Assembly (NCBI RefSeq): GCF_053078305.1
Contig: NZ_CP166879.1
Strand: one strand, 5' to 3'
DNA: 64,000 nucleotides
The translations under genes were made by a program, and so were the position numbers. The notes below the pieces were generated by a model. It saw only the letters and a program-made list of their open reading frames with translations. It had not been told where the DNA came from and did not search any database. Positions 15,635 through 56,197 of the stretch are shown here, piece after piece (within the stretch, counting starts at the first letter, position 1; every line of letters begins with the position of its first letter).

Positions 15635-16048
<414 letters not shown>

Positions 16049-16356
16049 TTATTCAGCCTCCTGTCTGGGTCAGCCGAATCCCGGGGAGGCAAGGAACGTG
16101 TTAAAGGTCGGCTGAAAAATGACGCGTTATAGTACTGACATACCCCGCTAAACTCAAGGCCAGCCGACAAATAAATCTCATCTTTCACCAAAGTGGACTA
16201 ACACGCTGATTTGAAGTTCATCACACTTCATCATGGTGTTTTTTTGAACAACTGCATCAGAAATGGTCACCATCAACTTCTTTATCATTGATTAAAATTA
16301 AATCAGAAGTTCATCACAGAGGAGAGCACACAAAGTCAGCCGTCGAGGAGGTATCT

Positions 16357-37071: not shown

Positions 37072-38628
37072 ATGCACGATTACCTGCTTTTTTTACTGGG
37101 ACTTACCCCCCTTCTGGCGATGATCATTTTGATTCTGAAAGTCAAAATGCCCATACACTATTCTGTGCTTAGCACTCTCCTGCTCACGCTAATCCTTGGA
37201 GGGGTTTTCTGGCAGACGCCAGTTATGGATATGGGATCTGCTGTGGTATACGGCGCAATCAAAGGTTTGTGGCCGATTGTGATTGTCATCCTTGCTGCCA
37301 TTTACAGCTATAACCTGATGAATGCGACAAAAAGCATGGATATTCTGAGAAATGTTCTAGCCAGCGTGAGCGATGATAAACGTATCCAGGTTCTTCTTAT
37401 CTCATGGTGTTTTGGCGGATTTCTTGAGGCGGCCGCCGGATACGGTACAGCGGTAGCAATCCCCATAGGTATACTCATTGCACTGGGCTTTAACCCACTA
37501 AAAGCAGCGATTGCATCACTGGTTGCTAATACAGTCCCTACAGCGTTTGGGGCAGTCGGTATACCTGTCTCCGTGCTTGCTGAACAAGTTAATTTACCTG
37601 TAACCACACTCAGCGGGACGATTATTCTTCAGCTGGCACTGTTCAACATTCTGCTCCCCTTCGTTATCGTCACGATTATCGGTGGAGGTATGAAAGCTAT
37701 ACGAGGCGTAGGGTTAATTACCCTGATGTGCGGTATTAGCACATTGATACCTCAGTATCTGGTGGCTGTTAATCTTGGCGCAGAGCTCCCGGCTTTCGCA
37801 GGAAGTCTTGTCAGTCTGATCGTTATAGTCTTTATGGCAAAAAACCGTAAAGAAAAAACAGAACCTGAATTTCTTATTGAGAGTTCAGCAGATAGCGCCA
37901 GCGCACTTTCATACTCTCGTGGGGCGTTGTTACGTGCGTGCTCAATCTACATTCTGATCTTTCTGTTCATTCTGCTTTGCTCTCCACTGTTCCCGACGAT
38001 AAAAAGTGCAGTGTCTCAGATTGCCTCGTCACTCACCTTCTCTCTGAGTAACGGCAGCAATCTGTCGATGAAAATTGAATGGATCGCAACCCCCGGTGTT
38101 CTGATTATCATTGCCAGTGTTATTGGCGGCTTGATACAGAAAGCATCCCTGTCATGCCTGTTAAACGTATTTGTCAGCACGGTAAAACAACTTAAAAACT
38201 CCATTATTGCCATTTCTGCGATTGTTGCCATGGCAACGGTAATGGATGTCTGTGGGTTGATTGGCACTCTGGCACAGAGCCTTGTGGATCTGACTGGTGG
38301 GGCCTACCTCTTCATTGCTCCGGTTATCGGCGCTCTTGGTACATTTGTTACTGGTAGTGACACAAACTCCAACATTCTGTTTGGTAAATTGCAGACTACT
38401 GCGGCTGAAAAATTGCATGTGGACCCGCTCTGGCTGGCTGCCGCAAATACATCTGGCGCAACAGGCGGCAAAATGATTTCTCCTCAGAGTATTGCTATCG
38501 CTGTTTCAGCCACCCGTATGGATGGTCAGGGCAGCGTAATCATGTCAGGAACACTGAAGTACTGCTTTGCTTATATTGTTATTCTTGGACTGAAAGTAGG
38601 CCTTGTCTACCACCTGTTCATGGCCTGA
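37072..38628 (+). CDS. lctP: L-lactate permease family (LctP) transporter
   Basis: 518-aa polytopic membrane protein with LctP-family features. Confidence 0.8.
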   Translation: MHDYLLFLLGLTPLLAMIILILKVKMPIHYSVLSTLLLTLILGGVFWQTPVMDMGSAVVYGAIKGLWPIVIVILAAIYSYNLMNATKSMDILRNVLASVSDDKRIQVLLISWCFGGFLEAAAGYGTAVAIPIGILIALGFNPLKAAIASLVANTVPTAFGAVGIPVSVLAEQVNLPVTTLSGTIILQLALFNILLPFVIVTIIGGGMKAIRGVGLITLMCGISTLIPQYLVAVNLGAELPAFAGSLVSLIVIVFMAKNRKEKTEPEFLIESSADSASALSYSRGALLRACSIYILIFLFILLCSPLFPTIKSAVSQIASSLTFSLSNGSNLSMKIEWIATPGVLIIIASVIGGLIQKASLSCLLNVFVSTVKQLKNSIIAISAIVAMATVMDVCGLIGTLAQSLVDLTGGAYLFIAPVIGALGTFVTGSDTNSNILFGKLQTTAAEKLHVDPLWLAAANTSGATGGKMISPQSIAIAVSATRMDGQGSVIMSGTLKYCFAYIVILGLKVGLVYHLFMA

Positions 38629-38677
38629 GAAAAAACAACAAAAGGACGTGGAATATTAATCAACAGGAGAAATTTCT

Positions 38678-39397
38678 GTGAATGTTAACTTTTTCGTCAC
38701 CTGCATTGGTGATGCGTTTAAATCCCGGATGGCACAAAAGAGTGTGCTGTTACTGGAGCAATTGGGTTGCAATGTCCATTTCCCCGAAAAGCAGGGATGT
38801 TGTGGTCAGCCAGCGATAAATGGCGGTTATGTTCGTGATGCCATCCCGGGCATGAAAAATCTCATATCTTCGCTGGAAGAGAATGACTGGCCGGTAGTAT
38901 CTCCTGCCGGGTCATGCACTTACACGATAAAAAATTACGCTCGCTATCTCAGTGAAGAACCTGAGTGGGCGGCACGAGCTGAAAAAGTGGCTGAACGCCT
39001 GCATGATTTGACATCATTTATAGTAAATCATCTTGGCATCACAGATGTTGGGGCAAAACTCAATGGTCGCGCTGTGTACCATCCCTCCTGCAGCCTTTCC
39101 CGTAAGCTGGGTGTAACCAGAGAGCCGCTTTTGCTACTTGAGAATGTACAGGGGCTTGAGCTACTGCCGTTTCACGCTCAGGAAACGTGCTGCGGGTTTG
39201 GCGGCACATTCTCTGTAAAAATGGCGGAGATCTCTGGTGAAATGGTGAAAGAGAAAGTCGGGCATATTATGGATGTTAAACCTGATTTTCTTATCGGGGC
39301 TGACGCCAGTTGCCTGCTAAACATCGGCGGTCGGCTTAACCGTGAAGGGCATCCTGTAAAAGTGATGCATATTGCTGAAGTCCTGATGCACAGATGA
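38678..39397 (+). CDS. lutA: Lactate utilisation protein A (LutA/YkgE-like, cysteine-rich CCG-domain Fe-S oxidoreductase)
   Basis: 239-aa ORF, GTG start with AGGAGA RBS; two CCG-type cysteine motifs (CCGQPA, CCGFGG). Confidence 0.82.
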   Translation: MNVNFFVTCIGDAFKSRMAQKSVLLLEQLGCNVHFPEKQGCCGQPAINGGYVRDAIPGMKNLISSLEENDWPVVSPAGSCTYTIKNYARYLSEEPEWAARAEKVAERLHDLTSFIVNHLGITDVGAKLNGRAVYHPSCSLSRKLGVTREPLLLLENVQGLELLPFHAQETCCGFGGTFSVKMAEISGEMVKEKVGHIMDVKPDFLIGADASCLLNIGGRLNREGHPVKVMHIAEVLMHR

Positions 39398-39407
39398 GGT
39401 AAACAGA

Positions 39408-40823
39408 ATGTCTTTGAAAACAAGTGATATCAGGTTTAAAGAGCGTATCCGTATTCAGATTCAGGACCCGATCATGCGAAAAGCTGTGGCTAACGCACAG
39501 GAGCGCATAGGGACTAATCGACAGAAAATGGTTGATGAACTGGGACACTGGGAGGAATGGCGTTCACGAGCTGAACAGATTCGTCGGCATGTTCTGGAAA
39601 ATCTTGATGCTTATTTGTATCAATTGTCCGAAAAGGTTACTGCGAATGGCGGGCATGTATATTTTGCCCGTACCAGAGAGGATGCAACCAGTTACATACT
39701 GAAGGTGGCGAAAGAAAAAAACGCCAGGAAGGTTGTTAAATCCAAATCAATGGTGACTGAGGAAATTGGCATGAATGCCGTTCTTCAGAAAGCCGGGATA
39801 CCCGTGATTGAAACGGACCTTGGGGAATATATTCTTCAGCTAGCACATGAGCCACCATCGCATGTGGTTGTGCCGGCAATACATAAAGATCGCCATCAAA
39901 TCCGCAGAGTTTTACATGAACATCTGGGGTATGACGGGCCTGAAACTCCAGAAGCAATGACATTGTTCATCCGTGAGAAAATCAGACAAGATTTTCTGAG
40001 TGCTGAAGTTGGCGTAACGGGGTGTAACTTTGCCGTTGCAGAAACAGGGTCAGTCTGCCTTGTTACAAACGAAGGCAACGCACGGATGTGCACCACATTA
40101 CCTAAAACACATATTGCTGTTATGGGTATGGAGCGTATTGCTCCGACATTCCAGGAGGTGGATGTTCTGATTACCATGCTTGCAAGGAGTGCTGTCGGGG
40201 CGAGACTGACAGGTTATAACACCTGGCTTACAGGCCCCAGAGAAGAAGGACATGTTGATGGTCCGGAAGAGTTCCATCTCGTTATTGTTGACAATGGGCG
40301 TTCAGAGATTCTCGGCTCAGAATTCAGCGATGTATTGCGATGTATCCGCTGCGGTGCCTGCATTAATACCTGCCCGGCTTATCGTCAGATTGGTGGGCAT
40401 GGTTATGGTTCAATCTACCCGGGGCCAATCGGCGCGGTTATTTCCCCATTGCTTGGTGGATATGAAGACTTTAAGGATTTACCCTATGCCTGCTCATTGT
40501 GCACTGCCTGCAATGGGGTATGTCCTGTAAAAATACCTCTGGCAACGCTAATACAAAAACATCGCCAGGTTATGGCAGAGTCTGAAATCACACCATTAAC
40601 GGAACGCCGTATAACCAGAGCATTCAATTACATAAACAGCCATCCGGCGTTGTGGAAGGTAGGTATGGTTGCTGGGGCCAAAACAGCCCGTCTGTTCATC
40701 AGGAAAGGAAAAACGCCGATTAGTGTTGGGGCGATAAAAGAATGGACTGAAGCCAGAGACCTGCCATCACCTGATGGAGAAAGCTTCCGTAGTTGGTTCA
40801 AGCGACATAAGAAGGAGGGGTAA
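39408..40823 (+). CDS. lutB: Lactate utilisation protein B (LutB/YkgF-like, 4Fe-4S ferredoxin + LUD domain)
   Basis: 471-aa ORF with two CxxCxxCxxxCP ferredoxin motifs (CIRCGACINTCP, CSLCTACNGVCP). Confidence 0.85.
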   Translation: MSLKTSDIRFKERIRIQIQDPIMRKAVANAQERIGTNRQKMVDELGHWEEWRSRAEQIRRHVLENLDAYLYQLSEKVTANGGHVYFARTREDATSYILKVAKEKNARKVVKSKSMVTEEIGMNAVLQKAGIPVIETDLGEYILQLAHEPPSHVVVPAIHKDRHQIRRVLHEHLGYDGPETPEAMTLFIREKIRQDFLSAEVGVTGCNFAVAETGSVCLVTNEGNARMCTTLPKTHIAVMGMERIAPTFQEVDVLITMLARSAVGARLTGYNTWLTGPREEGHVDGPEEFHLVIVDNGRSEILGSEFSDVLRCIRCGACINTCPAYRQIGGHGYGSIYPGPIGAVISPLLGGYEDFKDLPYACSLCTACNGVCPVKIPLATLIQKHRQVMAESEITPLTERRITRAFNYINSHPALWKVGMVAGAKTARLFIRKGKTPISVGAIKEWTEARDLPSPDGESFRSWFKRHKKEG

Positions 40824-40826
40824 TTT

Positions 40827-41525
40827 ATGGAAAACAGAGAGGAATTTCTCGTTGCGATCGCCAGAAAGCTTGGCAGACCAGTAAGACATATTCCCGAAGC
40901 AATGCCGGAGCCTGTAAATACGCTGGCTACGACACGTTTAACAGAGTTGACATCAGACCAACGCTGTGAGGCGTTTATTAAATTTGCCTCGGAAGTGATG
41001 CTTGCCGAGTGTGTTCTGGTGTCGCCTGAGAACGCACCATCAACAGCCTTAGACATCTGTTGGAAGTTCGGTTCCGGGCCAGTCATTATCAGCAACGATC
41101 AACGACTGGTCGATACAGGGATTACGCCATTGCTACAAAAAGAAATGGACGCTGCTCTGTGGGATCCGGAGAAGGGCGATGAAAATATCCATCTTGCTGA
41201 AAAGGCAAAAACTGGTGTCGTTTTCGCTGAGTATGGGCTGACAGAATCAGGAGGCATTGTCTTATTCTCCGCACCAGAACGTGGGCGCTCAGTAAGCCTT
41301 TTGCCTGAAGCATCATTATTTGTTTTACGTAAAAGCACCATTCTCCCCAGAGTGGCGCAGCTTGCGCAAAAACTTCATGATATGGCTCAGGAAGGACAAC
41401 GGATGCCGTCCTGTATAAATCTGATTGGAGGCCCAAGTTCTACTGCAGATATAGAACTGATCAAAGTTGTTGGCGTACATGGTCCTGTACATGCAACCTA
41501 TTTGATCATTGATGATTGCGATTAA
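40827..41525 (+). CDS. lutC: Lactate utilisation protein C (LutC/YkgG-like, LUD domain)
   Basis: 232-aa ORF immediately after lutB; operon context. Confidence 0.78.
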   Translation: MENREEFLVAIARKLGRPVRHIPEAMPEPVNTLATTRLTELTSDQRCEAFIKFASEVMLAECVLVSPENAPSTALDICWKFGSGPVIISNDQRLVDTGITPLLQKEMDAALWDPEKGDENIHLAEKAKTGVVFAEYGLTESGGIVLFSAPERGRSVSLLPEASLFVLRKSTILPRVAQLAQKLHDMAQEGQRMPSCINLIGGPSSTADIELIKVVGVHGPVHATYLIIDDCD

Positions 41526-41618
41526 CGATTGCTAATAAAAAAATGGCCTTAAGGTGATATTTCGTCTTGTGAAAAGGCAACAATAGACTAAAGGTTAGGC
41601 ATAATTGTGTTTCTTTAT

Positions 41619-41648
41619 GCCTCCGCAGCAATTTGTGGAGGCTTTTTT
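41619..41648 (+). terminator. Rho-independent terminator after lutC
   Basis: GCCTCCGCA...TGTGGAGGC hairpin followed by TTTTTT. Confidence 0.7.
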
Positions 41649-41728
41649 GCTTACTCCAAACAGTTTGGCTTCTTGAAAAAGTCATATCCCAAACCTATTG
41701 ACGCTTATAAAAAAGTAAAGAATGGTGA

Positions 41729-41957
41729 GTAAGCGTAAACTGACCACCGTATGTAGCCATGATGCCAGTATTGGTAACGTAGGTGCACCCCTATCTATTT
41801 TTGTAGAACCGGAGGAAACAGACCAGATAGTTTAAATGAGCTGGTTATACGTAACATAATTGTAAGCGTAAACTGACCGCCGTATGTAGCCATCAGACGA
41901 AAATTGGTAACTTAGACGCCCATCTGATATAGACGGACATCTAAGTATGGAATTACA
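41729..41957. repeat. Two tandem solo copies of an IS66-family terminal inverted-repeat segment
   Basis: GTAAGCGTAAACTGACC(A/G)CCGTATGTAGCCAT at 41729 and 41863, near-identical to the end of the IS66 element at 53769-53798. Confidence 0.65.
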
Positions 41958-41985
41958 TGAACCGCCCCGGAAATCCTGGAGACAT

Positions 41986-42211
41986 CTGGCCACCCTGATT
42001 CCTTCCCGTAACAACTGACGCCAGACTTTACGCACATCGTATACGCACGGTATCTTTTTCTTCAGCCAGTCATCACGCTGCGCACGGGCATTGCGTTTAT
42101 CAGGATGATGTCGCTGTTGCTGACAGTGGTAATACGTTGACGGGGCAATATGCAGTTCACTGCATACCGGTCCGATCCCGTACTGCTCACGCGACTTATC
42201 CAGCAGTGGCA
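41986..42211 (-). pseudogene. IS629 OrfB, truncated after ~75 codons
   Basis: MPLLDK...HIAPSTYYHCQQQRHHPDKR matches IS629 OrfB N-terminus then runs into the terminal IR. Confidence 0.7.
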
Positions 42212-42538
42212 TTATTTTTTCCAGGGGCGGTCGAACTCCGCCTTCGCAAAATAAGTGGAAGCCTGGCGAAGGATATCGTTACTGCGGCTCAGTTCACGAT
42301 TTTCACGTTCCAGCTCTTTCAGACGCTGACGTTCAGTGGTGGTGAAACCACCATCACCGCCCCCAATATCCTGCTCATGCTGGAGTACCCAGACGTGCAG
42401 AGTCTCCGGTGTACAGCCAATCTTAGGGGCAATAGAACAAATTGCTGTCCATTGTGAGTCATATTCGCCCTGACTTTCCAGAACCATACGAACTGCCCGT
42501 TGACGGACTTCGGGGGAAAAACGTGTATTTTTAGTCAT
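42212..42538 (-). CDS. IS629 OrfA
   Basis: 108-aa ORF MTKNTRFSPEVRQRAVRMV... recognised as IS629/IS1203 OrfA. Confidence 0.85.
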   Translation of the reverse strand: MTKNTRFSPEVRQRAVRMVLESQGEYDSQWTAICSIAPKIGCTPETLHVWVLQHEQDIGGGDGGFTTTERQRLKELERENRELSRSNDILRQASTYFAKAEFDRPWKK

Positions 42539-42752
42539 CCTGTTTACCTCTTTCTCAGGGAGTTTAGTCTCCAGGATTTCCGGGGCGGTTTAACGTTTAT
42601 AACAACTCCGACCATTCAAAATGGCCGGCGGGGTATAAATCCCTATCAATTTAACATTATCTCATTTGACATGAATAACGCCGTTTATCTATTTGTTGCC
42701 CTTTAGCTAGTTCATAGCAACCTAGAAAAATTTATTCGTTGCAATATAAATG

Positions 42753-44300
42753 CTACTTGCGTAGCGATAAAATTGCCCGTGCGGTTTCAGCACGGTTATA
42801 GATCTGCATTTTTTTTATTGCAGCATCCACATCTTCACCGCTTTTCTTATTCAGTTTAATCAGAAACTCAACAGGTAATAGCGAAGCTAAATTTTCAAAT
42901 TTTGATTCAGACCAAGTAATGGTTGCAACAGCCCCTTCAGTTCTCTTAATCATTAGTTTTTTAAGTAATTCTAAACGCTCTGGCTCAACAGTTATATAAC
43001 CAATCGGCAGGGTTAATGCACTATCAGAATTAGGTTGACCGTGGTATTGCACCAAAGCAATCACATCAGGAATTAAGAGGATCTCCAAACGATCAAATTT
43101 AGCCTCTGAAGTAAGGCCAATACCGGTAGGAAAACGACCTAAGTGCCGCTTACGCTCTTGACGTTTTTCACCTTCATCTGCACTTGAGTGTAAAAGCGAA
43201 ATGCGAGCAATCTTATCATCGGCATAATTGCCAAGTATATCGCCTAGAGCGCGAGTAAAACGCGAAAGTTGACTACCATTAGCTCCCCACAGTGGTACTT
43301 TACTGCTATACCACAGCGCTTTTGGAGCTGTTTTACCTATATAATCACGTAATGCATTATGCAACATACTAATGAACAGCTTAGAATTGTGCGGCAAATA
43401 AACAGCCCCTAACATGCCGGTAGTCAATGAAGTACCGTAGCCAGTTTTACGTTGTTCACGAGCCTCTATCCAGCCGGAATAGTTGAACTTATAACCATTA
43501 GCAAATTGTAACAACACTTTATCATTTGCTAGTTTACAGAAATCTTCACAGTCGATACCGAATTCATCTAGTTTATGTTCTCCCAAAAAATCTGCGATAT
43601 GAGCTTCCAGCTCGTTTGAAAGCGGCAGCCGGGTGTTACCTAAATATTCATAGGAACGAGTAAATTTCTGCGGCTCAATGCTCCCAGCAGAAACACCGTA
43701 GCTAACCTCTATCTCTATTGGGAGCTGCACCATCTCATGCGAACTACAGCCCATTATCTTATATAATTTAGTCCGTTGACGCTCATACTCGCTGTTGCGG
43801 CTGAGCAAAAGATGGTGCCGAAACTGGGAACTAAAAGCCTCTGTTACCGCAGCAGCATCTCCCCCGATCTGATGCCGCGGCAATAGCTCTGGCAGTCCAG
43901 AAGTAAAACGACGATTTGGTTGCGGTTTACATATCGAAAGAGTTAGTAGATCGAATGCAACTTCCTCCGTACATTCTTGATATTTAACTAAACTTGGCTT
44001 CCCACCATTATTAGCTGCATGCTTACGTAGGAATGAGCTAGCCTCAATATGCCCATCAGGATTAATGTTGATCAGTCTGTTAGCCAGCAACCCATCAAGC
44101 AATACCTCTCGCTCACGATCAGTTAGACCAAAGTAATTCTGTAACTCGCTGGGATAGAGTTGATCAAAAATCAGCAGCAAGCGACATGCAAACTGTTCAA
44201 TTCCAGGCATCAGTTTTTCAGTGGTCAAAGCGCAGTTGATCTTGTAACTACGCGCAGGTAGTAAAACGGTAATCAGATTACCCAGACGTGGTTCTGACAT
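42753..44300 (-). CDS. Hypothetical 515-aa protein, translationally coupled partner of the NERD-kinase-helicase gene
   Basis: Long ORF with start ATG overlapping upstream TAA (TAATG); no recognisable motif by eye. Confidence 0.8.
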   Translation of the reverse strand: MSEPRLGNLITVLLPARSYKINCALTTEKLMPGIEQFACRLLLIFDQLYPSELQNYFGLTDREREVLLDGLLANRLININPDGHIEASSFLRKHAANNGGKPSLVKYQECTEEVAFDLLTLSICKPQPNRRFTSGLPELLPRHQIGGDAAAVTEAFSSQFRHHLLLSRNSEYERQRTKLYKIMGCSSHEMVQLPIEIEVSYGVSAGSIEPQKFTRSYEYLGNTRLPLSNELEAHIADFLGEHKLDEFGIDCEDFCKLANDKVLLQFANGYKFNYSGWIEAREQRKTGYGTSLTTGMLGAVYLPHNSKLFISMLHNALRDYIGKTAPKALWYSSKVPLWGANGSQLSRFTRALGDILGNYADDKIARISLLHSSADEGEKRQERKRHLGRFPTGIGLTSEAKFDRLEILLIPDVIALVQYHGQPNSDSALTLPIGYITVEPERLELLKKLMIKRTEGAVATITWSESKFENLASLLPVEFLIKLNKKSGEDVDAAIKKMQIYNRAETARAILSLRK

Positions 44301-47300
44301 TAGTTGTTATCTCCAAGCAGACTTTGACCACACAGGATTTGGTAGTTGGGTTCATCTACTGCAACCTGTTTACTAATAAATTCATGAACGTTTCCAAGTG
44401 CTGAATCATTATTGGTCTTTGACCACATACGCCTTGCTCCCAGAATCAATAACCTTTCTTGAGCTCGCGAAATAGCAACGTTTATTCGCGGCGCGTCGCG
44501 CAGGAAACCTTGTAGTTTGTTGGGATTATCGCGAACCAGACTGAGGATAATTATCTTGTTTTCCTGGCCCTGATATGAATCAACGGTATCGATCTTGATC
44601 AAACCACGTAACGATGCAGCCCATTCAGCCCGACTGATAGCATTGTCAATTTCCTCTTTTTGCTGACGATACATTGTGATTATACCAATAGGATATGGCT
44701 GTTCTGTGGTAATAGTTTGCTCAAGCTGTGCAATGCAGCCATCACTCGACAATGACTGCAAAGCCTCTAGCAGTAGCCGGACTTCTCGTTGATTATAGTA
44801 ACGACCATTACCCTTATGTTCTTCTGCACCTGCTTCATTAGGGCTCGAACTATCGATCCAAGTAACAGTTTTGTTCCAAGGGATTGGTAACTTGGAATAC
44901 CAATCTGGCGAGACTTTCCTCGATGAATGCAGTTTACCGATATCTTGAGCGTAAAAGCACTCCGATACTAACTCGCCAATTGGTTCTACCATTCGATATT
45001 GAGTATCGAGTGTTACGCCGCCTGTTGCTTTAAAAGCACGTTCAAAATCAGACTCATAAAAGATCCCTTTCCCGAGTTCTAATTTCTTAGAGGCTAACTT
45101 AAGATGCTGTTGATGATAGAATGGTGGCAATTGTTTATGATCCCCTACCAACAGCACCCGCTTGCCTGATTGCAGCGCTACCATCAATTCAGCAGCTTGT
45201 GCTCGGCCAGCCTCATCAACTATTACCCAATCAAAGCTGGACTCAGCTAGTTCTAGTCGACGATTCCCAACACCAACAAGAGTTCCACAAACCAATCGCT
45301 TACTTTTGAACATAAATCGATCAAATCCAGCCTCGCCGCCGCGTAATACATCCATCCACTCTTGGCTCATTTCCAATAGCTGCATAAAACGTTCAAGGTT
45401 CTCTGGATTGTTATAATTGTATTGTATGGCAACTTGCTCAGCCAACTGTCTTATCAAGGTTTCATCATAGACAAGAGTTTTCAGCAAGCTGTCATCGAAT
45501 ATTGAGTTAATAATTTCTTGTGTTCGCAGTTTAAGCTGATTGCTTTGTTCTAATAATTCAGCCAGTCGCTCTTGATGACTAATACTACTACTCTTTATTT
45601 GTTCTACTTTATCCAGCTCACGGCTATATTGGCCATATGTCACCATCAAGGGATTCAGCGTACGATGTAACTGACATAACTGTTGGACTAATAATGGGGC
45701 CATCCCTAGGCGCTTTCCTAGGGAGCTAACTCGCAGATCATATTCACGGTGAAATTTATGCTGAATCTGTCGCTGAAGAGCTTTAGTTGCAACACTTAGC
45801 ATACCCTCATCAATCATAAGTTCATTACCAATACGTACTGTATCCAGTTCCATTCCTTTCGTATGGCAGAGCTCTCGAGCCTTGATGGCTACATTATCAA
45901 CAGAGGCATGGGATTGCCCGACCAAAAGAATGTTATTCACACCGCAATGTTGATACAGATAGTGAATAAATTTTGAAATAAATGTTGTTTTACCTGTTCC
46001 AGGTGGTCCCTGCAGAACTCCAACTGGTCCAAACTCGACCAACTGTTGAAATGCCATTAGCTGCTGTTCATTAAAACGTTGTCCAGGCTGATCATAAAGT
46101 GCGCGTAATGTCTCCGCGGATGGCCGCGGTTGCATTTGCTGCATGCAGGGTTTCTGGTGGTAATCAAAATACTGTGGCAGATGCTGGATCTCTGCTTTGT
46201 TTTCAATTACCCGTTGAAGGGCTCTTTGACGCAACTCTCTTGATGATTTGTCACGGATCGATTCCAATTGTAGCTGGCTGCCGCTACTAATTCGCTTACG
46301 AGCAGCATCAAAATCAAAGCGAATAGCCAATAGACTCGGCGTAGTCTCACTTAGCTGCAATTCCCCTAATTGCACTGATTCACGCTTATCTTTAATATAA
46401 ACAATGATCTTATCATCAAGTTCAAAGCTGAGGTCAGCACCGGATTCCGTAGTATATGGGTAGAGTAAGCAACCACTCGGTGATTCCTGAAAGTCAGTAG
46501 AGTCGATGTTGACTATATCTCGTAGGTCTACTTCTGTATCAGATAATGCCTGCCATAACTCAATTGGGCTTGACTCACTACTATCGAAGTCATCTTCATC
46601 CATCTCTTGATTAGGATTAGCTCGCTCAATGATGGCATCAATTACTGGCTCGAGGTTAAACAGTAGTTCAATAAAAGTATTACGCTGATTAAGTGAGCCA
46701 CGTTGTAATGAAAGTTGAGTATTAATTTTAGCCTGGGAATATTTACCAGCCTTTATACTTTCTTCGATCGATAATCCTTTTTCATACACTATTCTATTAA
46801 TAGTGCGATTATCAGGATCTAAGTCTATCAATAGCCGCTCTCCTAGGCCAGTGATGTAACAACGCAATTCATGCGCAAAGCGTGGGTTAGATGACCAGTT
46901 ACATTGAAAATAATAGATCCCATCATTTTGTTCTAGAAGCTTCACTTCTTGCGGCCAATCATCTGTGCCCCAGCAAACAGGAATTACCTTATCCTGTGAC
47001 TCAGACGCCACAACTTGATTAATCTCAGCTTGTTCCGGTGCTCGAATTGACTGCAGCAAAGGATCGAGCGCGATAGGTATACCGTCAACGGTTTGTTTTG
47101 CGCGTTCTAGCTCAGCCTGCACCAGTACTGGCATATCTTCACTAAATAGCTCCTCCACCATACGATATACTGCAAAGCAATCTCGCCCAAAAGCATCAGT
47201 ACTTTCGGGATTCTCTGGCTGGTAGCGATTATCTGCAGTTAATTCATCACTGAATTCAAGCAATCCAATCAGAGTAATTACTGTCTGCTCCCCGACTTGT

Positions 47301-49258
47301 ACCAGCAGTTTCTCTGGGCAAAGATCTCCATGAGGTAACTGCTTTTCATGAAAAGCATGAATGGTGTTGATCAACTTTTCCGCAATTGTAAAACGTTGGG
47401 ATTGTACTAACACGTTCTCAGCAATAAACTGTGACCACGGTAGGCCATCCACATACTCGCTCACTACATACAAGCCGCCTTGTCCTAATAGTCCATAGGA
47501 CTGCACCTTAGGAGTTGGCAGATTTATATGCGTAAGCTTATCGATCCGTTGCTTAAAAGCGTGGATACGGCGGTTAACACCAGGTTGTTGAGGGGTCAAA
47601 ATAACACCATCCCACAATTTTACCTGCAGAGCTTTCCCACCTTGTTCACAGTGATAACTGATGCTGCCAGTCGTAGCAATAGCAGCAAGAGCAGAGTAAA
47701 CCATAGACAACTGTTCAGGAAGTGGAGGAAACTCAATTAACACACCAACGCTGTTCATCCCTTCGCGAAAGAATTTGTTTTGCTTTAATTCTTGATAAAT
47801 CTGGTTAGCTTCATCAAATTCTTGGCTATGTTCCTTAGTAGCTGCATTAAACTCATTGAGCATTATGTCCGCACGTGGAAAGCGTTTACTTGGCTCAAGG
47901 TTAAGAGCTTGCTCAAACCAGCTATTTAGAATACCGCTAAAAGGATCAGTTAATGGAGCTCTCCATTCAGGCATCTGTCCAGGAGTCAGTAATGATTCAC
48001 CTGCAAAACAAATACGATAAGCAATTACAGCCAACATGAATACATCTAGGCGATAGGGCTCAACTGCTTCTTCAAAAGCATCTTCGGGCAAAATATATGG
48101 AGCACTTTGCAATGTCGGACGCAATGACTCTAGGCTATTATGTCCCTCCAGTGAGGCTGCGCCAAAGCCAGTAACGACAATGCTCTTCTGATCCCCTGCG
48201 TACCATAGATTGTGCGGGTCAATATCACAATGACTGATACCCAAGCTATGTAATTCCGAGAATGGAGCTAATAATGCACGAACGCGATCAATACGCTCAG
48301 ATTTACTCCATCCGTCAGCTTCGCTATCTAGAATCTCATCTAATCGGCTAAAACTACGGCGTAACTCATACAGCTCACGGGCATCATCAGTTATATCCTC
48401 CTCGGATAGTTCCCTTACAGCACGCAACATATAATCCTGCATAGTTGCGCTGCCATGACGAACTAGGCGACCGACTCGAGTCTCACGCAGAGCTATCTCA
48501 GCCCACAATGTTTGCATTGCGTTTGCTACACCCAAGGCATCAAAGTTCCACTGCCGTAGCAGACCTCTGTGTTGACTATTGTCTTTGTGGGTAGCCCTGA
48601 ATTCGTTGTAGACCATGTGAGGGTGACTAAAGAATGGCTTATCGTTCGCAAGATAACCGCTTTCTTTTAGTGGCAAAGGCCTGACTTTTGGTCCTTCAAA
48701 GAAGGACTTAATTATAGGTAATGCCTCATCAGAATTTGGTCGAGGCTTTCCCCCTTCAAAAAGATGAAAAAAGTTAGTGTGTTGCACCAGCTTTTCGTAA
48801 TTTTTTGGGTTACCTATAGTCAAGAATTCATCACGGGTATGAACATAGCGCCTCTCACTTAATGGCAAGTTTTCAGGACCAGCTGTGCCACACAGCACTA
48901 CATGAGCCTCAACATGCAAAAAGTAACCCAGCTTACGAGATAACTCTTCCTGCAACAAATCTTTTAGTCGCAGTGCATGCTCACGCTTGATCTGATAGGG
49001 ACTTTTGCCTCGTGACTTACCATTTTGCAGCCACTTCCCCCCTTCAAATGTGATGTTACCATTCCACTCTTTAAGCTCGACTAATAGCAGACGGTCAGCA
49101 GTAATAATTAGCATATCGATTTCCATCGACCCTTGGCTATCAGTAACAACTAAGCCAGCATAGCCAAACCAACTATCTGGTAACTGCTTAACCATCATAT
49201 CAACTGTTTTGGTTTCGCTGCGGTGCAGGCCAGCACCACCTACTATCTGATACTTCAC
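44300..49258 (-). CDS. 1652-aa multidomain protein: N-terminal NERD-like nuclease domain, two protein-kinase-like domains, C-terminal SF1 (Upf1/DNA2-like) helicase
   Basis: NERD-like D...ELK region (aa ~45-65); kinase catalytic-loop-like HCDIDPHN (aa 343-350) and HGDLCPEK (aa 643-650); Walker A GPPGTGKTT (aa ~1084), Walker B VIVDEAG, SF1 motif TVDSYQGQE. Confidence 0.85.
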   Translation of the reverse strand: MKYQIVGGAGLHRSETKTVDMMVKQLPDSWFGYAGLVVTDSQGSMEIDMLIITADRLLLVELKEWNGNITFEGGKWLQNGKSRGKSPYQIKREHALRLKDLLQEELSRKLGYFLHVEAHVVLCGTAGPENLPLSERRYVHTRDEFLTIGNPKNYEKLVQHTNFFHLFEGGKPRPNSDEALPIIKSFFEGPKVRPLPLKESGYLANDKPFFSHPHMVYNEFRATHKDNSQHRGLLRQWNFDALGVANAMQTLWAEIALRETRVGRLVRHGSATMQDYMLRAVRELSEEDITDDARELYELRRSFSRLDEILDSEADGWSKSERIDRVRALLAPFSELHSLGISHCDIDPHNLWYAGDQKSIVVTGFGAASLEGHNSLESLRPTLQSAPYILPEDAFEEAVEPYRLDVFMLAVIAYRICFAGESLLTPGQMPEWRAPLTDPFSGILNSWFEQALNLEPSKRFPRADIMLNEFNAATKEHSQEFDEANQIYQELKQNKFFREGMNSVGVLIEFPPLPEQLSMVYSALAAIATTGSISYHCEQGGKALQVKLWDGVILTPQQPGVNRRIHAFKQRIDKLTHINLPTPKVQSYGLLGQGGLYVVSEYVDGLPWSQFIAENVLVQSQRFTIAEKLINTIHAFHEKQLPHGDLCPEKLLVQVGEQTVITLIGLLEFSDELTADNRYQPENPESTDAFGRDCFAVYRMVEELFSEDMPVLVQAELERAKQTVDGIPIALDPLLQSIRAPEQAEINQVVASESQDKVIPVCWGTDDWPQEVKLLEQNDGIYYFQCNWSSNPRFAHELRCYITGLGERLLIDLDPDNRTINRIVYEKGLSIEESIKAGKYSQAKINTQLSLQRGSLNQRNTFIELLFNLEPVIDAIIERANPNQEMDEDDFDSSESSPIELWQALSDTEVDLRDIVNIDSTDFQESPSGCLLYPYTTESGADLSFELDDKIIVYIKDKRESVQLGELQLSETTPSLLAIRFDFDAARKRISSGSQLQLESIRDKSSRELRQRALQRVIENKAEIQHLPQYFDYHQKPCMQQMQPRPSAETLRALYDQPGQRFNEQQLMAFQQLVEFGPVGVLQGPPGTGKTTFISKFIHYLYQHCGVNNILLVGQSHASVDNVAIKARELCHTKGMELDTVRIGNELMIDEGMLSVATKALQRQIQHKFHREYDLRVSSLGKRLGMAPLLVQQLCQLHRTLNPLMVTYGQYSRELDKVEQIKSSSISHQERLAELLEQSNQLKLRTQEIINSIFDDSLLKTLVYDETLIRQLAEQVAIQYNYNNPENLERFMQLLEMSQEWMDVLRGGEAGFDRFMFKSKRLVCGTLVGVGNRRLELAESSFDWVIVDEAGRAQAAELMVALQSGKRVLLVGDHKQLPPFYHQQHLKLASKKLELGKGIFYESDFERAFKATGGVTLDTQYRMVEPIGELVSECFYAQDIGKLHSSRKVSPDWYSKLPIPWNKTVTWIDSSSPNEAGAEEHKGNGRYYNQREVRLLLEALQSLSSDGCIAQLEQTITTEQPYPIGIITMYRQQKEEIDNAISRAEWAASLRGLIKIDTVDSYQGQENKIIILSLVRDNPNKLQGFLRDAPRINVAISRAQERLLILGARRMWSKTNNDSALGNVHEFISKQVAVDEPNYQILCGQSLLGDNN

Positions 49259-49468
49259 GTTTTCTCCTGCACCACTAAATTTTTGTTGGTGGTAGTCCAG
49301 TAAAAATGGATGTAGTTATCTAAGACAGCGCATAGATTGTGCCTGCCTAACCCTAAAAAGTGTAATTATGAAAAGTAACGCTAGAAATTCTATACCGTTC
49401 GCAAAGAGAACACTTTTCAAAGATATATCATCATCTTGAACATGTCACTATAATGGTGAATCCATAAG

Positions 49469-49630
49469 ATGCGAACACCACATCTTGTGCCACTCAGCAA
49501 ACAGGCTGTAGCCATACTGATAAAACTTCAGACATGGGCAGTTGAAAATGGTCTGGTCTTTACGGGAGCACATGACCCGCGTAAACCAATCAGCGAAAAC
49601 ACCGTAAATAAGGCCCTTAGGTGCCCTTGA
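49469..49630 (+). pseudogene. Phage-type integrase fragment (internal ~53 codons only)
   Basis: MRTPHLVPLSKQAVAILIKLQ...GLVFTGAHDPRKPISENTVNKALR resembles the central region of P4-type integrases (compare intact int at 18437). Confidence 0.5.
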
Positions 49631-49725
49631 ACCACTATATCCAGACAGCCGTTGAGCTTAAGTTAACGTTACCGAGTGACGTTGATATTCCCTCGGTGAG
49701 AGATAACCAAGGCACCATGAGGATG

Positions 49726-50353
49726 CTATTCGTTATAGTGTTCGAACGCCTCCGCAAGGTTTTTTACTGCCGTTAACACGTCCGGTTTAGGTATGATACT
49801 GATGTAATCGCTCTTCATCGTTTTCACGAACCGTTCTCTCATTCCATTACTCTGAGGGCTACTGACTGCCGTCGTGCAGAGCTCCAGATTCAACTCTCTG
49901 GCGAACTGCCGTGTTTCATGAGTTGTATAAGCCGAACCGTTATCGGTCAGCCACTGGATGGGCCATCCCGGTCTATCGCCAAAGCGTTTTTCTATCGCTC
50001 CTGACATGACATCCTGCACCGTTGCTTTGCCATAACCTCCCGTGCTTGCGGCCCAGTCTATGGATTCAAGATCGCAACAGTCCAGTGCGAACGTGACACG
50101 CAGTTTTTCGTCATCATCACAACCGAACTCAAAGCCATCGGCACACCAGCGCGGGTCGCTTTCCTTCACCGATATTCGGGCCTTTATGTTCCCTCTGCGG
50201 TCGTGAAGGTTTGTCATGTAATAACAACAGGTTATTCTCGCTCATTATTCGATAAACGCGATTTGCATTCACGAACTGCAGTCCTTCGTTAAGACTGCCG
50301 TCTGAGAATAGCCCAGACACGACGATAGCCATCGAATCGCTGAACAGCGTCAT
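49726..50353 (-). pseudogene. IS2-like (IS3 family) transposase OrfB remnant, frameshifted
   Basis: ORFs 49726-50217 and 50129-50353 together resemble IS2 InsD (NANRVYRIM..., [34 protein letters not shown]) in two frames. Confidence 0.6.
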
Positions 50354-50459
50354 TCGGCAGGCGATAAAGAAGGTGTCGTTACGGGGAAGTCATCTTCACA
50401 GAGATTTTCAGTCAGTTAGCATTACCGACATTCATTCACCAACTTACCGGAGATAATCA

Positions 50460-50789
50460 ATGTCAAAACCCCGATGGACCATTGAACAGAAAAGGCAGCA
50501 CGTTGCTGCCTGGCGCGCCAGTGGTCTTACACGTCAGCAATACTGTGAACTCAACGATATTCCCTTCACATCACTTCGCGAATGGCCGCAGGATGTCGCA
50601 AAAGCTGAACGCCGGGCAAATGAACCGACCGTTCTTCCCGTTCATATTGCGCCACCACTGCATGCTGATGTACCACAGCCCGTCACGAATGAGCCAGTCA
50701 CGCTCTTCCTTCCCGGCGGAGTACGGATGTGCTGTCAGCCGTCACAACTTACCGATGTCTTCAGGGCGCTCAAATATGCTCAGTCCTGA
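50460..50789 (+). CDS. IS66-family TnpA (orf1) of outer element
   Basis: 109-aa ORF followed by overlapping tnpB and tnpC in the canonical IS66 order. Confidence 0.7.
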   Translation: MSKPRWTIEQKRQHVAAWRASGLTRQQYCELNDIPFTSLREWPQDVAKAERRANEPTVLPVHIAPPLHADVPQPVTNEPVTLFLPGGVRMCCQPSQLTDVFRALKYAQS

Positions 50790-51168
50790 TAATGTCTTCA
50801 TCGCGATTAAACCTGTTGACATGCGCCGGGGCATCGACACACTGACGCAGTATATACAGGATGAACTCCGGTCGACATGGCATGAGGGAGCCGCCTTCGT
50901 CTTTGTTAACAAAGTCCGTTCGCGTATCAAAGTTCTCCGGTGGGATAAACACGGGGTGTGGTTGTGTACCCGCCGTCTGCACAAAGGCAGCTTCCGCTGG
51001 CCACGTGCAAATGATGCTGCCTGGCACCTCACTCCCGACGAGTTTAACTGGCTGATTGCCGGTGTTGACTGGCAGCAGGTTAAGGGACATGACCTGACGA
51101 AATGGGGCTGGCAGAATGAACCTGAACTGCGCCCTGAAAACACGCAAAATACACTGCTAACTCAGTGA
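50776..51168 (+). CDS. IS66-family TnpB (orf2) of outer element
   Basis: ORF 50482-51168; start set at MLSPDNVFIAIKPVDMRRG, paralogous to the TnpB at 52940-53290. Confidence 0.7.
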   Translation: MLSPDNVFIAIKPVDMRRGIDTLTQYIQDELRSTWHEGAAFVFVNKVRSRIKVLRWDKHGVWLCTRRLHKGSFRWPRANDAAWHLTPDEFNWLIAGVDWQQVKGHDLTKWGWQNEPELRPENTQNTLLTQ

Positions 51169-51174
51169 AAAATA

Positions 51175-51265
51175 ATGAATATCCGTATCCGGAGTGGTAT
51201 ACTCCCCTGTATGGATATCTCCGCTCTCAACACCACGAATGACATCGAAAAACTGCGTGCTATGG
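51175..51265 (+). pseudogene. IS66-family tnpC of outer element, 5' part (interrupted by nested IS66 insertion)
   Basis: ATG at 51175; reading frame continues exactly across the insertion into 53807-55320 when one copy of the 8-bp duplication is removed. Confidence 0.7.
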
Positions 51266-51295
51266 GTAAGCGTCAACGGAGCACCGTATTGACGC

Positions 51296-52909
51296 TTATT
51301 TATTGGTGAGTACTACGTTCCATGGCAGGAGTTCATCAACTCGGTTGGAAGGCCATTCTGGCAGTACGCTCAGGATATGGCGCAGATACGCTTCCGGATC
51401 GATACCGTTCAGACGGCAGGTGCCGATCAGCCCGTACAACAGTGCTCCACGCTCGCCGCCGTGATCGCTGCCAAAGAACATAAAGTTTTTCTTTCCGAGA
51501 CAGACTGCACGAAGCGCTCTTTCCGCAGCATTATTATCCGCCTCCGCCAGACCGTCATCACTGTAATAACAGAGGGCATCCCACTGATTCAGTACATAGC
51601 TGAACGCTTCGCCCAGTCTGGATTTTTTCGACAGCGTACCATTCTTCTCCACCATCCATTCATGCAGTGACGTCAGTAACACTTTGCTTCGCTGCTGCCT
51701 GACGGCAAGACGCTCTGACTCCGGTAATCCCCGTATTTCATCCTCGATGGCGTACAGTTCACTGATTCGCTTCAGGGCTTCTTCTGCCGTCGCACTTTTG
51801 CTGCTGATGTATACATCGTGGATTTTTCGCCGGGCATGGGCCCAGCACGCAACTTCTGTCAGTGCACCACCTTCACGTTCTGCACTGAACAGCCGATCGT
51901 AACCGCTGAACGCATCCGCCTGCAGGATACCCCGGAAGGGACGAAGGTGTTGTACCGGATGTTTTCCCTGCCTGTCTGGTGAGTAGGCGAACCAGACCGC
52001 CGGTGGCTCTGATGAGCCCGCATTCCGGTCATCCCGGACATACGTCCAGATGCGTCCTGTTTTTGCCTTTTTTCTGCCCGCTGCCAGCACTTTTACTGGT
52101 GTGTCGTCAGTGTGAACCTTGCGGGTGTTCATCACGTAACGGTACAGGGTATCATTCAGCAGAGTCATTAACTGACAACATGCGTCAACCCAGTTGGAGA
52201 GTAATGCCCGGCTCAGTTCGATGCCCTGGCGGGCAAAGATTTCACTCTGACGATACAGTGGCAGGTGTTCGCAGTATTTTCCCGTTAACACGCGGGCAAG
52301 TAATCCGGAGCCCGCGATGCCGCGCTCTATCGGGCGGGACGGCGCTGGCGCTTCAACTATACAGTCACATTTTGTACAGGCTTTTTTTACCCGAACAGTG
52401 CGGATCACTTTCAGGGCGCTACTCACCAGTTCCAGCTGCTCAGCACTGACTTCCCCCAGATAATCCAGCTCACTGCCACACTCCGGGCAACAACTTTCTT
52501 CAGGCTCCAGACGGTGTATTTCACGGGGAAGATGTGCCGGTAACGGACGACGATGACGTGACTGTCGCAACTGGCGGGGAACCTGCGGGTCATCCTCACG
52601 CCCACTGTAACGATCGCTTTCCTGTTCGCGTTGTTTCAGTTGGGCCTCAGCCTGTTCAACCTCACGCTGCAGTTTTTCAGAACGGGTACCGAACAACATC
52701 CGGCGCAGTTTTTCTATCTGGGCCCTCAGATGTTCTATTTCCCGCTCCTCCTCTTCGATCTTTTCCTCGGCACGTGCCAGTGCAGAGCGCAGGAAGGCCT
52801 CCGTCTCTTCAACCAGACTCAGTTGCTGATCTTTCTGACGGAGGGCTTCAGCCTGCTCAGAGAGCAGCCTTTCCAGCTCAGTGATACGAATGAGGTATTT
52901 CCGACTCAT
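51296..52909 (-). CDS. IS66-family transposase TnpC
   Basis: 537-aa ORF with N-terminal coiled-coil, CPECG zinc-finger-like motif and DDE region. Confidence 0.9.
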   Translation of the reverse strand: MSRKYLIRITELERLLSEQAEALRQKDQQLSLVEETEAFLRSALARAEEKIEEEEREIEHLRAQIEKLRRMLFGTRSEKLQREVEQAEAQLKQREQESDRYSGREDDPQVPRQLRQSRHRRPLPAHLPREIHRLEPEESCCPECGSELDYLGEVSAEQLELVSSALKVIRTVRVKKACTKCDCIVEAPAPSRPIERGIAGSGLLARVLTGKYCEHLPLYRQSEIFARQGIELSRALLSNWVDACCQLMTLLNDTLYRYVMNTRKVHTDDTPVKVLAAGRKKAKTGRIWTYVRDDRNAGSSEPPAVWFAYSPDRQGKHPVQHLRPFRGILQADAFSGYDRLFSAEREGGALTEVACWAHARRKIHDVYISSKSATAEEALKRISELYAIEDEIRGLPESERLAVRQQRSKVLLTSLHEWMVEKNGTLSKKSRLGEAFSYVLNQWDALCYYSDDGLAEADNNAAERALRAVCLGKKNFMFFGSDHGGERGALLYGLIGTCRLNGIDPEAYLRHILSVLPEWPSNRVDELLPWNVVLTNK

Positions 52910-55921: not shown

Positions 55922-56197
55922 CTATTTTTTATCTTCTTTTCTTTCTTGTAACTTTGCTTTTATCCAAATACCAATCCCTGCTAACATACCAGCCCCTCCC
56001 CCCACCTTTAAAGAATAAATAATATCTGCCCTCCAATCAAAAAATAAAACTTGAGTTTTAGAAAAAACTATCAGTCTACCAAGAATAGTACCTAACATTG
56101 CCATAAAAAAGATGCAAGCTATGCAGCGCATTATTAGTATGATAAGAATGTAAAAGTTGACACTCTTATTTATTTTTAATGGATTTATCAGCTTCAT
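55922..56197 (-). CDS. cdiI: Putative CdiI immunity protein (small polytopic membrane protein)
   Basis: 91-aa hydrophobic ORF immediately downstream of and overlapping the cdiA 3' end; start may be an internal Met. Confidence 0.6.
   Translation of the reverse strand: MKLINPLKINKSVNFYILIILIMRCIACIFFMAMLGTILGRLIVFSKTQVLFFDWRADIIYSLKVGGGAGMLAGIGIWIKAKLQERKEDKK

Follow-up and report, generated by a model that had tools for sequence, protein, structure and literature searches.

Is the protein encoded directly behind a very large helicase gene in this stretch of DNA an orphan, and if it is not, what is its task? The window (the whole stretch of 64,000 nucleotides that was analysed, from contig NZ_CP166879.1 of the NCBI RefSeq assembly GCF_053078305.1) carries on its minus strand a gene for a protein of 515 amino acids (aa). 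A first-pass annotation called it an orphan partner of the helicase, without a recognisable motif, and offered for it the roles of effector, sensor or antitoxin-like regulator. Our answer to the first part of the question is firm: the 515-aa protein and its 1652-aa partner together make up a type I Mokosh anti-phage system, which belongs to the subtype with a long MkoA (E. coli SEC470-like), and the 515-aa protein is the MkoB of that system. Our answer to the second part is graded. Of the three roles the evidence favours that of sensor or adaptor: with a probability of roughly 0.55, MkoB is a non-catalytic nucleic-acid-binding protein that works for MkoA, and not the nuclease effector that is usually described. 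What points us there is the lost HKD motif, the NERD nuclease in the partner, the conserved winged helix and the fusions of relatives to double-stranded RNA-binding domains (dsRBDs).

The identity of the pair follows from the PADLOC models. The MkoB model PDLC03923 matches the 515-aa protein with E=1.1e-61 (residues 8-456, profile positions 11-439 of 454), a further model, PDLC03922, matches its N-terminal hairpin and winged helix-turn-helix (wHTH) module, and the MkoA model PDLC03921 covers residues 2-1642 of the partner with 1305 bits; hence the pair is type I Mokosh, and the word orphan has to be given up. The absence of a recognisable motif, on the other hand, is borne out at the level of sequence, since the Pfam search finds no family even at E <= 10 and the NCBIfam search finds none either; a profile search of the PDB sequences with MkoB likewise returns nothing at E <= 10. 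Two type I Mokosh systems have been verified in E. coli, those of ETEC H10407 (SG202; MkoA of 1215 aa, 'HTH-PLD' MkoB of 602 aa) and of SEC470 (SG199; 'Kinase-Helicase' MkoA of 1652 aa, MkoB of 478 aa labelled 'HTH' only in Table S2), where HTH stands for helix-turn-helix and PLD for phospholipase D (Millman et al. 2022). To the MkoB of ETEC H10407 the 515-aa protein has no BLAST similarity. To that of SEC470 it has 23% identity over residues 10-390 (BLASTP, E=5e-15). Our family alignment in turn includes P0142, which shares 52% identity with the SEC470 protein and whose gene adjoins that of a NERD-bearing MkoA.

The SEC470 system is therefore the closer comparison. It has the same gene order and the same protein families as the window pair, a MkoA of equal length with the N-terminal NERD motif D...ELK, and a MkoB in the range of about 480-515 aa which is 'HTH' only and without HKD; with 23% identity the two MkoB proteins do fall in separate clades. 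Anti-phage defence was demonstrated for the SEC470 system (Millman et al. 2022), and from such relatives we infer it for the window allele. It is true that a PLD domain with HxK(x)4D belongs to the main-text description of type I Mokosh in Millman et al., but since even the MkoB of the verified SEC470 system carries no label beyond 'HTH', this motif is not defining for the SEC470-like subtype. The product in the window, an intact 'hypothetical protein' in RefSeq (WP_001294844.1), and its relatives can accordingly be annotated as MkoB (HKD-less). We do not claim the system or the subtype as new: both are already known, verified in a relative and callable with existing tools, and the present MkoB is a divergent member.

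Start/stop coupling to the helicase gene had been noticed before, and it holds. The TAA stop of mkoA and the ATG of mkoB share one base (...AACAACTAATGTCA...), with a GGAG some 10 nt 5' of the ATG, and comparable overlaps occur in distant relatives (the loci labelled here L002, L003, L007, L008 and L014). The open reading frame (ORF) proposed at first is real, but its end at 44302 takes in the stop codon of mkoA; mkoB itself ends at 44300. Wherever the upstream gene is complete, mkoB lies directly 3' of a gene for a protein of 1625-1680 aa with NERD, kinase, AAA_11 and AAA_12 domains, with overlapping stop and start. No third conserved operon gene was found across the loci compared, and scans for promoters and terminators gave sites no commoner than in shuffled sequence. 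What had been seen as a partner of the large protein is its obligate and co-translated partner in a two-gene module of defence type.

That we have a true gene here, and one kept by selection, is shown by the size of the family, a confident AlphaFold2 model and the intact, conserved ORF. A full HMMER profile search (E <= 1e-3) returns 387 clusters at 50% identity, nearly all of which have 450-530 aa and align over their full length; a word-indexed search gives 41 relatives, none with a Pfam domain and each named 'hypothetical'; and Foldseek has 504 matches in AFDB50 at E <= 1e-3, where 'Uncharacterized protein' is the name of almost every one of the 50 listed. The members are 'uncharacterized' throughout UniProt and RefSeq. 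A pseudogene and a housekeeping enzyme, two readings that had been raised as ways in which the first interpretation might fail, are both rejected, the former by the intact and conserved ORF and the latter by the lack of such a match in any library. The closest relatives of the window protein come from Salmonella, Pectobacterium, Pantoea, Photobacterium and Vibrio, and relatives' loci stand in mobile or defence settings, beside a type I restriction-modification (R-M) system, an integrase or plasmid-type genes. Within E. coli it is a rare gene of the chromosome: 69 of 5426 complete genomes have it at 95% identity or more (67 of the 69 at 99% or more), and positions 40000-52000 of the window are 100% identical to E. 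coli GPEC1176.

Although no signature could be seen by eye, a remote homology check with Foldseek on a predicted structure does find a fold. AlphaFold2, run with a family alignment of 126 sequences, which also served for the conservation and motif counts, models MkoB with a mean predicted local distance difference test score (pLDDT) of 94.4 and a predicted template-modelling score (pTM) of 0.88; a single-sequence run reached a pLDDT of 33, and the model from the family alignment was used instead. In this model an N-terminal hairpin and wHTH module is followed by a middle domain, to which no fold could be assigned, and by a C-terminal domain which is predicted to have the alpha/beta fold of the PLD superfamily. 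Its elements follow one another in the order b-a-b-a-b-a-b-b-b-b-a-b, in agreement with that fold, and residues 291-465 match almost solely PLD-superfamily entries of the PDB (E from 2e-4 to 4e-2). The best are vaccinia F13 (2e-4) and H. pylori NucT (2.9e-4, target-normalised TM about 0.5); Nuc (1byr, 3.4e-3, TM 0.50), phosphatidylserine synthase, PLD, the pseudo-PLD FAM83 (4urj) and mouse Zucchini (4ggj) are also among them. TrmBL2 (6.7e-4) is matched over both the wHTH and the PLD-like domain, and TrmB is matched too. Conservation is uneven, with a mean pairwise identity of 27.6% in the N-terminal module, 20.7% in the PLD-like domain and 17.0% in the middle domain; a domain that evolves as fast as the last fits a recognition surface.

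This predicted fold has been kept without its catalytic residues. HxK(x)4D has been lost across the family: the motif HxK(x)4D(x)6G(S/T)xN is absent from the 515-aa protein and across its relatives, the simpler pattern HxK(x)4D is met in 1 of the 126 members at a position that is not homologous, and none of the 126 matches a PLD family of Pfam, where the members give just weak wHTH-type matches. All 27 canonical HTH-PLD MkoB proteins, by contrast, have HxK(x)4D and match PF13091. The single-lobe nucleases Nuc, NucT and Zucchini/PLD6 have the same fold in about 150-175 residues (target-normalised TM 0.44-0.51), but the catalytic His, Lys and Asp are absent in MkoB. What the PLD-like domain does conserve is G298, Y301, N305, W330, W338, E406, H420, P432, G434 and T/S437. 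Aligned by hhalign, the two MkoB families agree over the first 120 or so columns only (E=7.5e-4, probability 25%), so the signature that MkoB proteins have in common is the N-terminal hairpin and wHTH module. The trimmed C-terminal domain gives no significant alignment to either PLD lobe of canonical MkoB, and its PLD-like homology is accordingly a matter of structure. Canonical MkoB of the ETEC H10407 type shares with ours that N-terminal module and a gene position directly after a superfamily 1 (SF1) helicase MkoA, but it has about 600 aa and two PLD lobes, both of which carry HxK(x)4D, beside a MkoA of about 1150-1250 aa without NERD; the window MkoB has one PLD-like lobe without HKD and another middle domain.

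The coding sequence (CDS) of mkoA has the same length in RefSeq, and its NCBIfam matches are an IGHMBP2-family helicase (9e-44), the MAD6 kinase (1.9e-38) and PglW (1.4e-22). D48, E61, L62 and K63 of its NERD domain are invariant in five long MkoA proteins, and the helicase motifs are intact (Walker A GPPGTGKT at 1084-1091, Walker B VIVDEAG from 1345). Encoded next to mkoB in the same orientation, MkoA has both parts asked of its counterpart in type I Mokosh, a COG1112/UPF1-like SF1 helicase and a Ser/Thr-kinase-like part. The two kinase-like domains match the PD-T4-6/PglW kinase models of PADLOC. The first reads HCDIDPHN, with GFG in place of DFG; the second (47249-47450, residues about 603-670) has HGDLCPEK in place of the HGDLHPxN of four relatives, and LIGLLEF in place of their (L/F)ID..DF. 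On this alignment of five sequences, both kinase modules may be without catalytic activity in the present allele. Over its N-terminal 670 residues MkoA is matched by MAD6 and by PglW of type 2 BREX; the arrangement NERD, pseudokinase, kinase has been described for PglW and DndF (PMC12839542, PMC10853773). In distinction from PglW, MAD6 and DndF, Mokosh fuses this module to a UPF1-like SF1 helicase and pairs it with MkoB, without a methyltransferase or PglZ.

The two signatures exclude each other in the loci where both could be judged. HKD-less MkoB goes with a NERD-bearing MkoA in 6/6 informative cases (the window, L002, L003, L007, L014 and SEC470), and HKD-bearing MkoB goes with a MkoA of 1153-1249 aa without a NERD match in the other 6/6 (L009/10, L011/12, L013, L016, L017 and ETEC H10407). 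This small but consistent sample suggests that each subtype carries one nuclease, and carries it in a different subunit. In the literature searched we did not find it stated that the 'HTH-only' MkoB keeps a dead PLD fold, nor that loss of HKD accompanies NERD; we regard both points as modest refinements.

How could such a pair work? We start from what we regard as established, that is, the identity of MkoB, the synteny and coupling of the genes, the folds, the loss of HKD and the reciprocal distribution of NERD and HKD. MkoA and MkoB, co-translated through the TAATG overlap, would form a complex. For the binding of nucleic acid or another infection cue MkoB would use its winged helix, the degenerate pocket of its PLD-like domain and the middle domain with its variable sequence, and it would then target or license MkoA; the damage would be done by the helicase motor and the NERD nuclease of MkoA, which we take as the probable effector, and possibly by its kinase. 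A link to nucleic acid is supported by a natural fusion. P0088, a protein of 997 aa (L002:8001-10994; also A0A7C9G4N5 in the AlphaFold database, AFDB), is an HKD-less MkoB relative with a C-terminal extension of about 500 aa that contains two Pfam dsrm (dsRNA-binding) domains (1.5e-10 and 9.6e-9); its gene is located 3' of that of a NERD-kinase-helicase MkoA and has type I R-M genes as neighbours. To evade one type I Mokosh system takes DNA glucosylation together with the Alt ADP-ribosyltransferase, which is compatible with a sensor or adaptor, but not decisive. According to one survey, type I Mokosh could not be purified.

Several points speak against this proposal, and they should be put on the table together. 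The literature calls MkoB 'the PLD nuclease' and reports that mutation of the PLD site abolished defence; which system was mutated is not stated. The Foldseek matches to the PLD superfamily are of modest strength, with E of about 1e-4 to 1e-2 and a target-normalised TM near 0.45-0.5, and the reciprocal pattern comes from 12 loci, a small sample. Contact between MkoA and MkoB is deduced from coupling and synteny alone. Finally, polar residues of the PLD-like domain are near-invariant (E406 in 99% of the family, N305 in 90%, H420 in 82%, T/S437 in 98%), so that the domain may hold a non-canonical catalytic or ligand-binding site.

The last point leads directly to the view that MkoB is an enzymatic effector after all, with a PLD fold rebuilt around E406, H420, N305, Y301 and T/S437. 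Its substrate would be nucleic acid or some other phosphodiester, and it might act as a dimer, as Nuc and Zucchini do. It is in favour of this view that these residues persist over 126 divergent members, that E406 starts the fifth strand and H420 ends the sixth in the secondary structure of the model, about where, as is established for Nuc, PLD enzymes have their HxK and GSxN elements, and that single-lobe PLD nucleases, which do act as dimers, are represented by NucT, Nuc and Zucchini among the Foldseek matches. Yet the PLD mechanism requires a histidine nucleophile and a lysine, neither of which is found at the equivalent motif, and the HKD-less PLD folds among the matches, TrmB/TrmBL2 and FAM83, are non-catalytic binders. 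Moreover, the partner has an intact NERD nuclease which is seen in this subtype and not in the other (6/6 versus 6/6). In our opinion an enzymatic MkoB is unlikely. If the HKD-less fold is taken to point to a binding role, MkoB could also be an antitoxin-like brake that holds the NERD nuclease, kinase or helicase of MkoA inactive until infection removes or modifies it, and the tight coupling and strict synteny of the pair would suit this, as would FAM83 among the matches, for the pseudo-PLD domains of FAM83 are kinase-binding scaffolds and MkoA has kinase-like domains. Against a brake stand the size of MkoB (515 aa in three domains), its conserved winged helix of DNA-binding type, and E. coli 2013C-3181, where mkoA appears frameshifted and mkoB is intact, the reverse of what addiction would favour, although this state is compatible with loss of the toxin as well. 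No Mokosh gene is among the untransformable deletions of Millman et al., who do not state whether deletion of mkoB was tried. We are still more doubtful about a brake than about an enzyme.

The MarR-like wHTH followed by an HKD-less PLD-like domain resembles the archaeal TrmB/TrmBL2 proteins closely enough to ask whether MkoB is mainly a transcription factor of that kind, which controls the operon or host genes and senses a small molecule with its PLD-like domain. The likeness is structural, with 0/126 members matching the TrmB wHTH or Regulator_TrmB families of Pfam, and the TrmB proteins work in transcription or chromatin on their own and not as partners of a helicase, while MkoB has a middle domain of about 165 aa inserted between the two parts. 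The gene is distal and coupled to that of a 1652-aa enzyme, neither divergent from it nor proximal to a promoter. The same N-terminal module precedes active PLD lobes in canonical MkoB, which argues for the targeting of a nuclease to nucleic acid, and the dsRBD fusions indicate RNA and not operator DNA. A regulator of this type is, we believe, very improbable.

Returning to the sensor or adaptor that we prefer, the observations allow a more specific form of it, which we hold to be possible though less likely than not. Type I Mokosh would come in two forms that differ in which subunit carries the nuclease, and the MkoB of the long form would be a pseudo-enzyme in which the dead PLD fold, as a sensor pocket, together with the winged helix and the fast-evolving domain, reads an infection-specific nucleic acid (dsRNA, an RNA/DNA hybrid or modified DNA) and switches on the NERD nuclease and/or the kinase of MkoA.

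Table 1. The Mokosh pair, its domains and its borders in the window
Feature	Position	Strand	Description or basis
mkoB CDS	42753..44300	minus	ATG start, 515 aa plus stop; second gene of type I Mokosh, HKD-less subtype
TAATG stop/start overlap of mkoA and mkoB	44298..44302	minus	read from sequence
MkoB residues 1-125	43926..44300	minus	beta-hairpin (5-29), MarR-like wHTH (33-87), strand (104-117)
MkoB residues 126-290	43431..43925	minus	middle domain, helices and long beta-hairpins, most variable; model
MkoB residues 291-465	42906..43430	minus	predicted single PLD-like alpha/beta domain without HxK(x)4D / GSxN; Foldseek, model, conservation
mkoA CDS	44300..49258	minus	1652 aa, GTG start; NERD, two kinase-like domains, UPF1-like SF1 helicase
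MkoA NERD (PD-(D/E)xK-type) nuclease domain, residues 14-122	48893..49219	minus	Pfam NERD 6.1e-14
MkoA kinase-like domains, residues ~301-420 and ~560-670	47249..48358	minus	Pfam Pkinase 1e-4 (317-418), 0.056 (595-657)
MkoA SF1 (UPF1/DNA2-like) helicase core, residues ~1021-1630	44369..46198	minus	PADLOC PDLC03920 (1021-1630), TIGR00376 (1338-1638)
IS3-family transposase remnant, downstream cassette boundary	41832..42538	minus	NCBIfam transpos_IS3 fragments; RefSeq 'transposase, frameshifted'
ALIL frameshift pseudoknot within the IS3 remnant	42141-42257	minus	Rfam RF01497, 107 bits
IS2/IS3-family transposase fragment, boundary upstream of mkoA	49726..50217	minus	NCBIfam IS2 TnpB 2.2e-69, partial; RefSeq pseudogene in L001, L018
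Tyrosine-recombinase remnant	~49467-49622	plus	

As the table indicates, the pair is embedded in the debris of insertion sequences (IS). The IS3 remnant lies 215 bp downstream of mkoB, and on the upstream side IS66 genes follow at 50460-52909. Beyond the IS3 remnant lies a lactate permease with an operon of LutA/LutB/LutC type for L-lactate oxidation (37072-41525, plus strand); membership of mkoB in this operon is rejected, the operon being on the opposite strand with the remnant in between, and it is unrelated to Mokosh, as is the TonB-dependent receptor (PRK13486) at 32693-34783. In E. coli strain 222 the same cassette has in its neighbourhood a TIR-domain protein (L001:32008-32712, about 10 kb upstream of mkoA), a group II intron, type VI secretion system remnants and many IS copies; given this different neighbourhood, the cassette sits in differing mosaic islands among strains. 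Elsewhere in the window there are an ORF of 2606 aa (56166-63986, minus), where GC content is high and the GC skew strongly negative, and Rfam matches at gathering level to the ES239 small RNA (2723-2845, minus, 154 bits) and the RpsF leader (16028-16112, minus, 110 bits); the window contains no tRNA genes.

Two observations concern the integrity of the pair. The Rhodanobacter protein A0A2W5JZK8 of AFDB (817 aa) has both a 'DNA2/NAM7 helicase-like C-terminal domain' and a complete region resembling MkoB (query-normalised TM 0.84); this is either a true MkoA-MkoB fusion or an artefact of gene calling over the overlapping stop and start. In E. coli 2013C-3181 (L018:4300-9259), and also in SCU-106, mkoA is annotated as two CDS, one with the NERD/kinase part and one with the AAA part, and mkoB of such strains is identical (WP_001294844.1). 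The split annotation suggests a frameshift, and some of the E. coli population may be losing a working Mokosh system.

Mokosh is among the commoner of the recently described anti-phage systems, and reviews and annotation have built on the description of MkoB as 'the PLD nuclease' an analogy to the PIWI-interacting RNA (piRNA) pathway, where Zucchini works with the UPF1-like helicase MOV10L1, a parallel to Mokosh that is drawn in the literature. In a subtype of at least 387 clusters, MkoB is without the HKD site and the sole intact nuclease signature is the NERD of MkoA; for this reason mechanistic models should treat the two Mokosh subtypes separately, and the task that is conserved in MkoB may be recognition and not cleavage. 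If the more specific form of our proposal is true, bacteria would have in the MkoB of the long form their own equivalent of FAM83 and similar pseudo-PLD scaffolds, one that works with a UPF1-like helicase.

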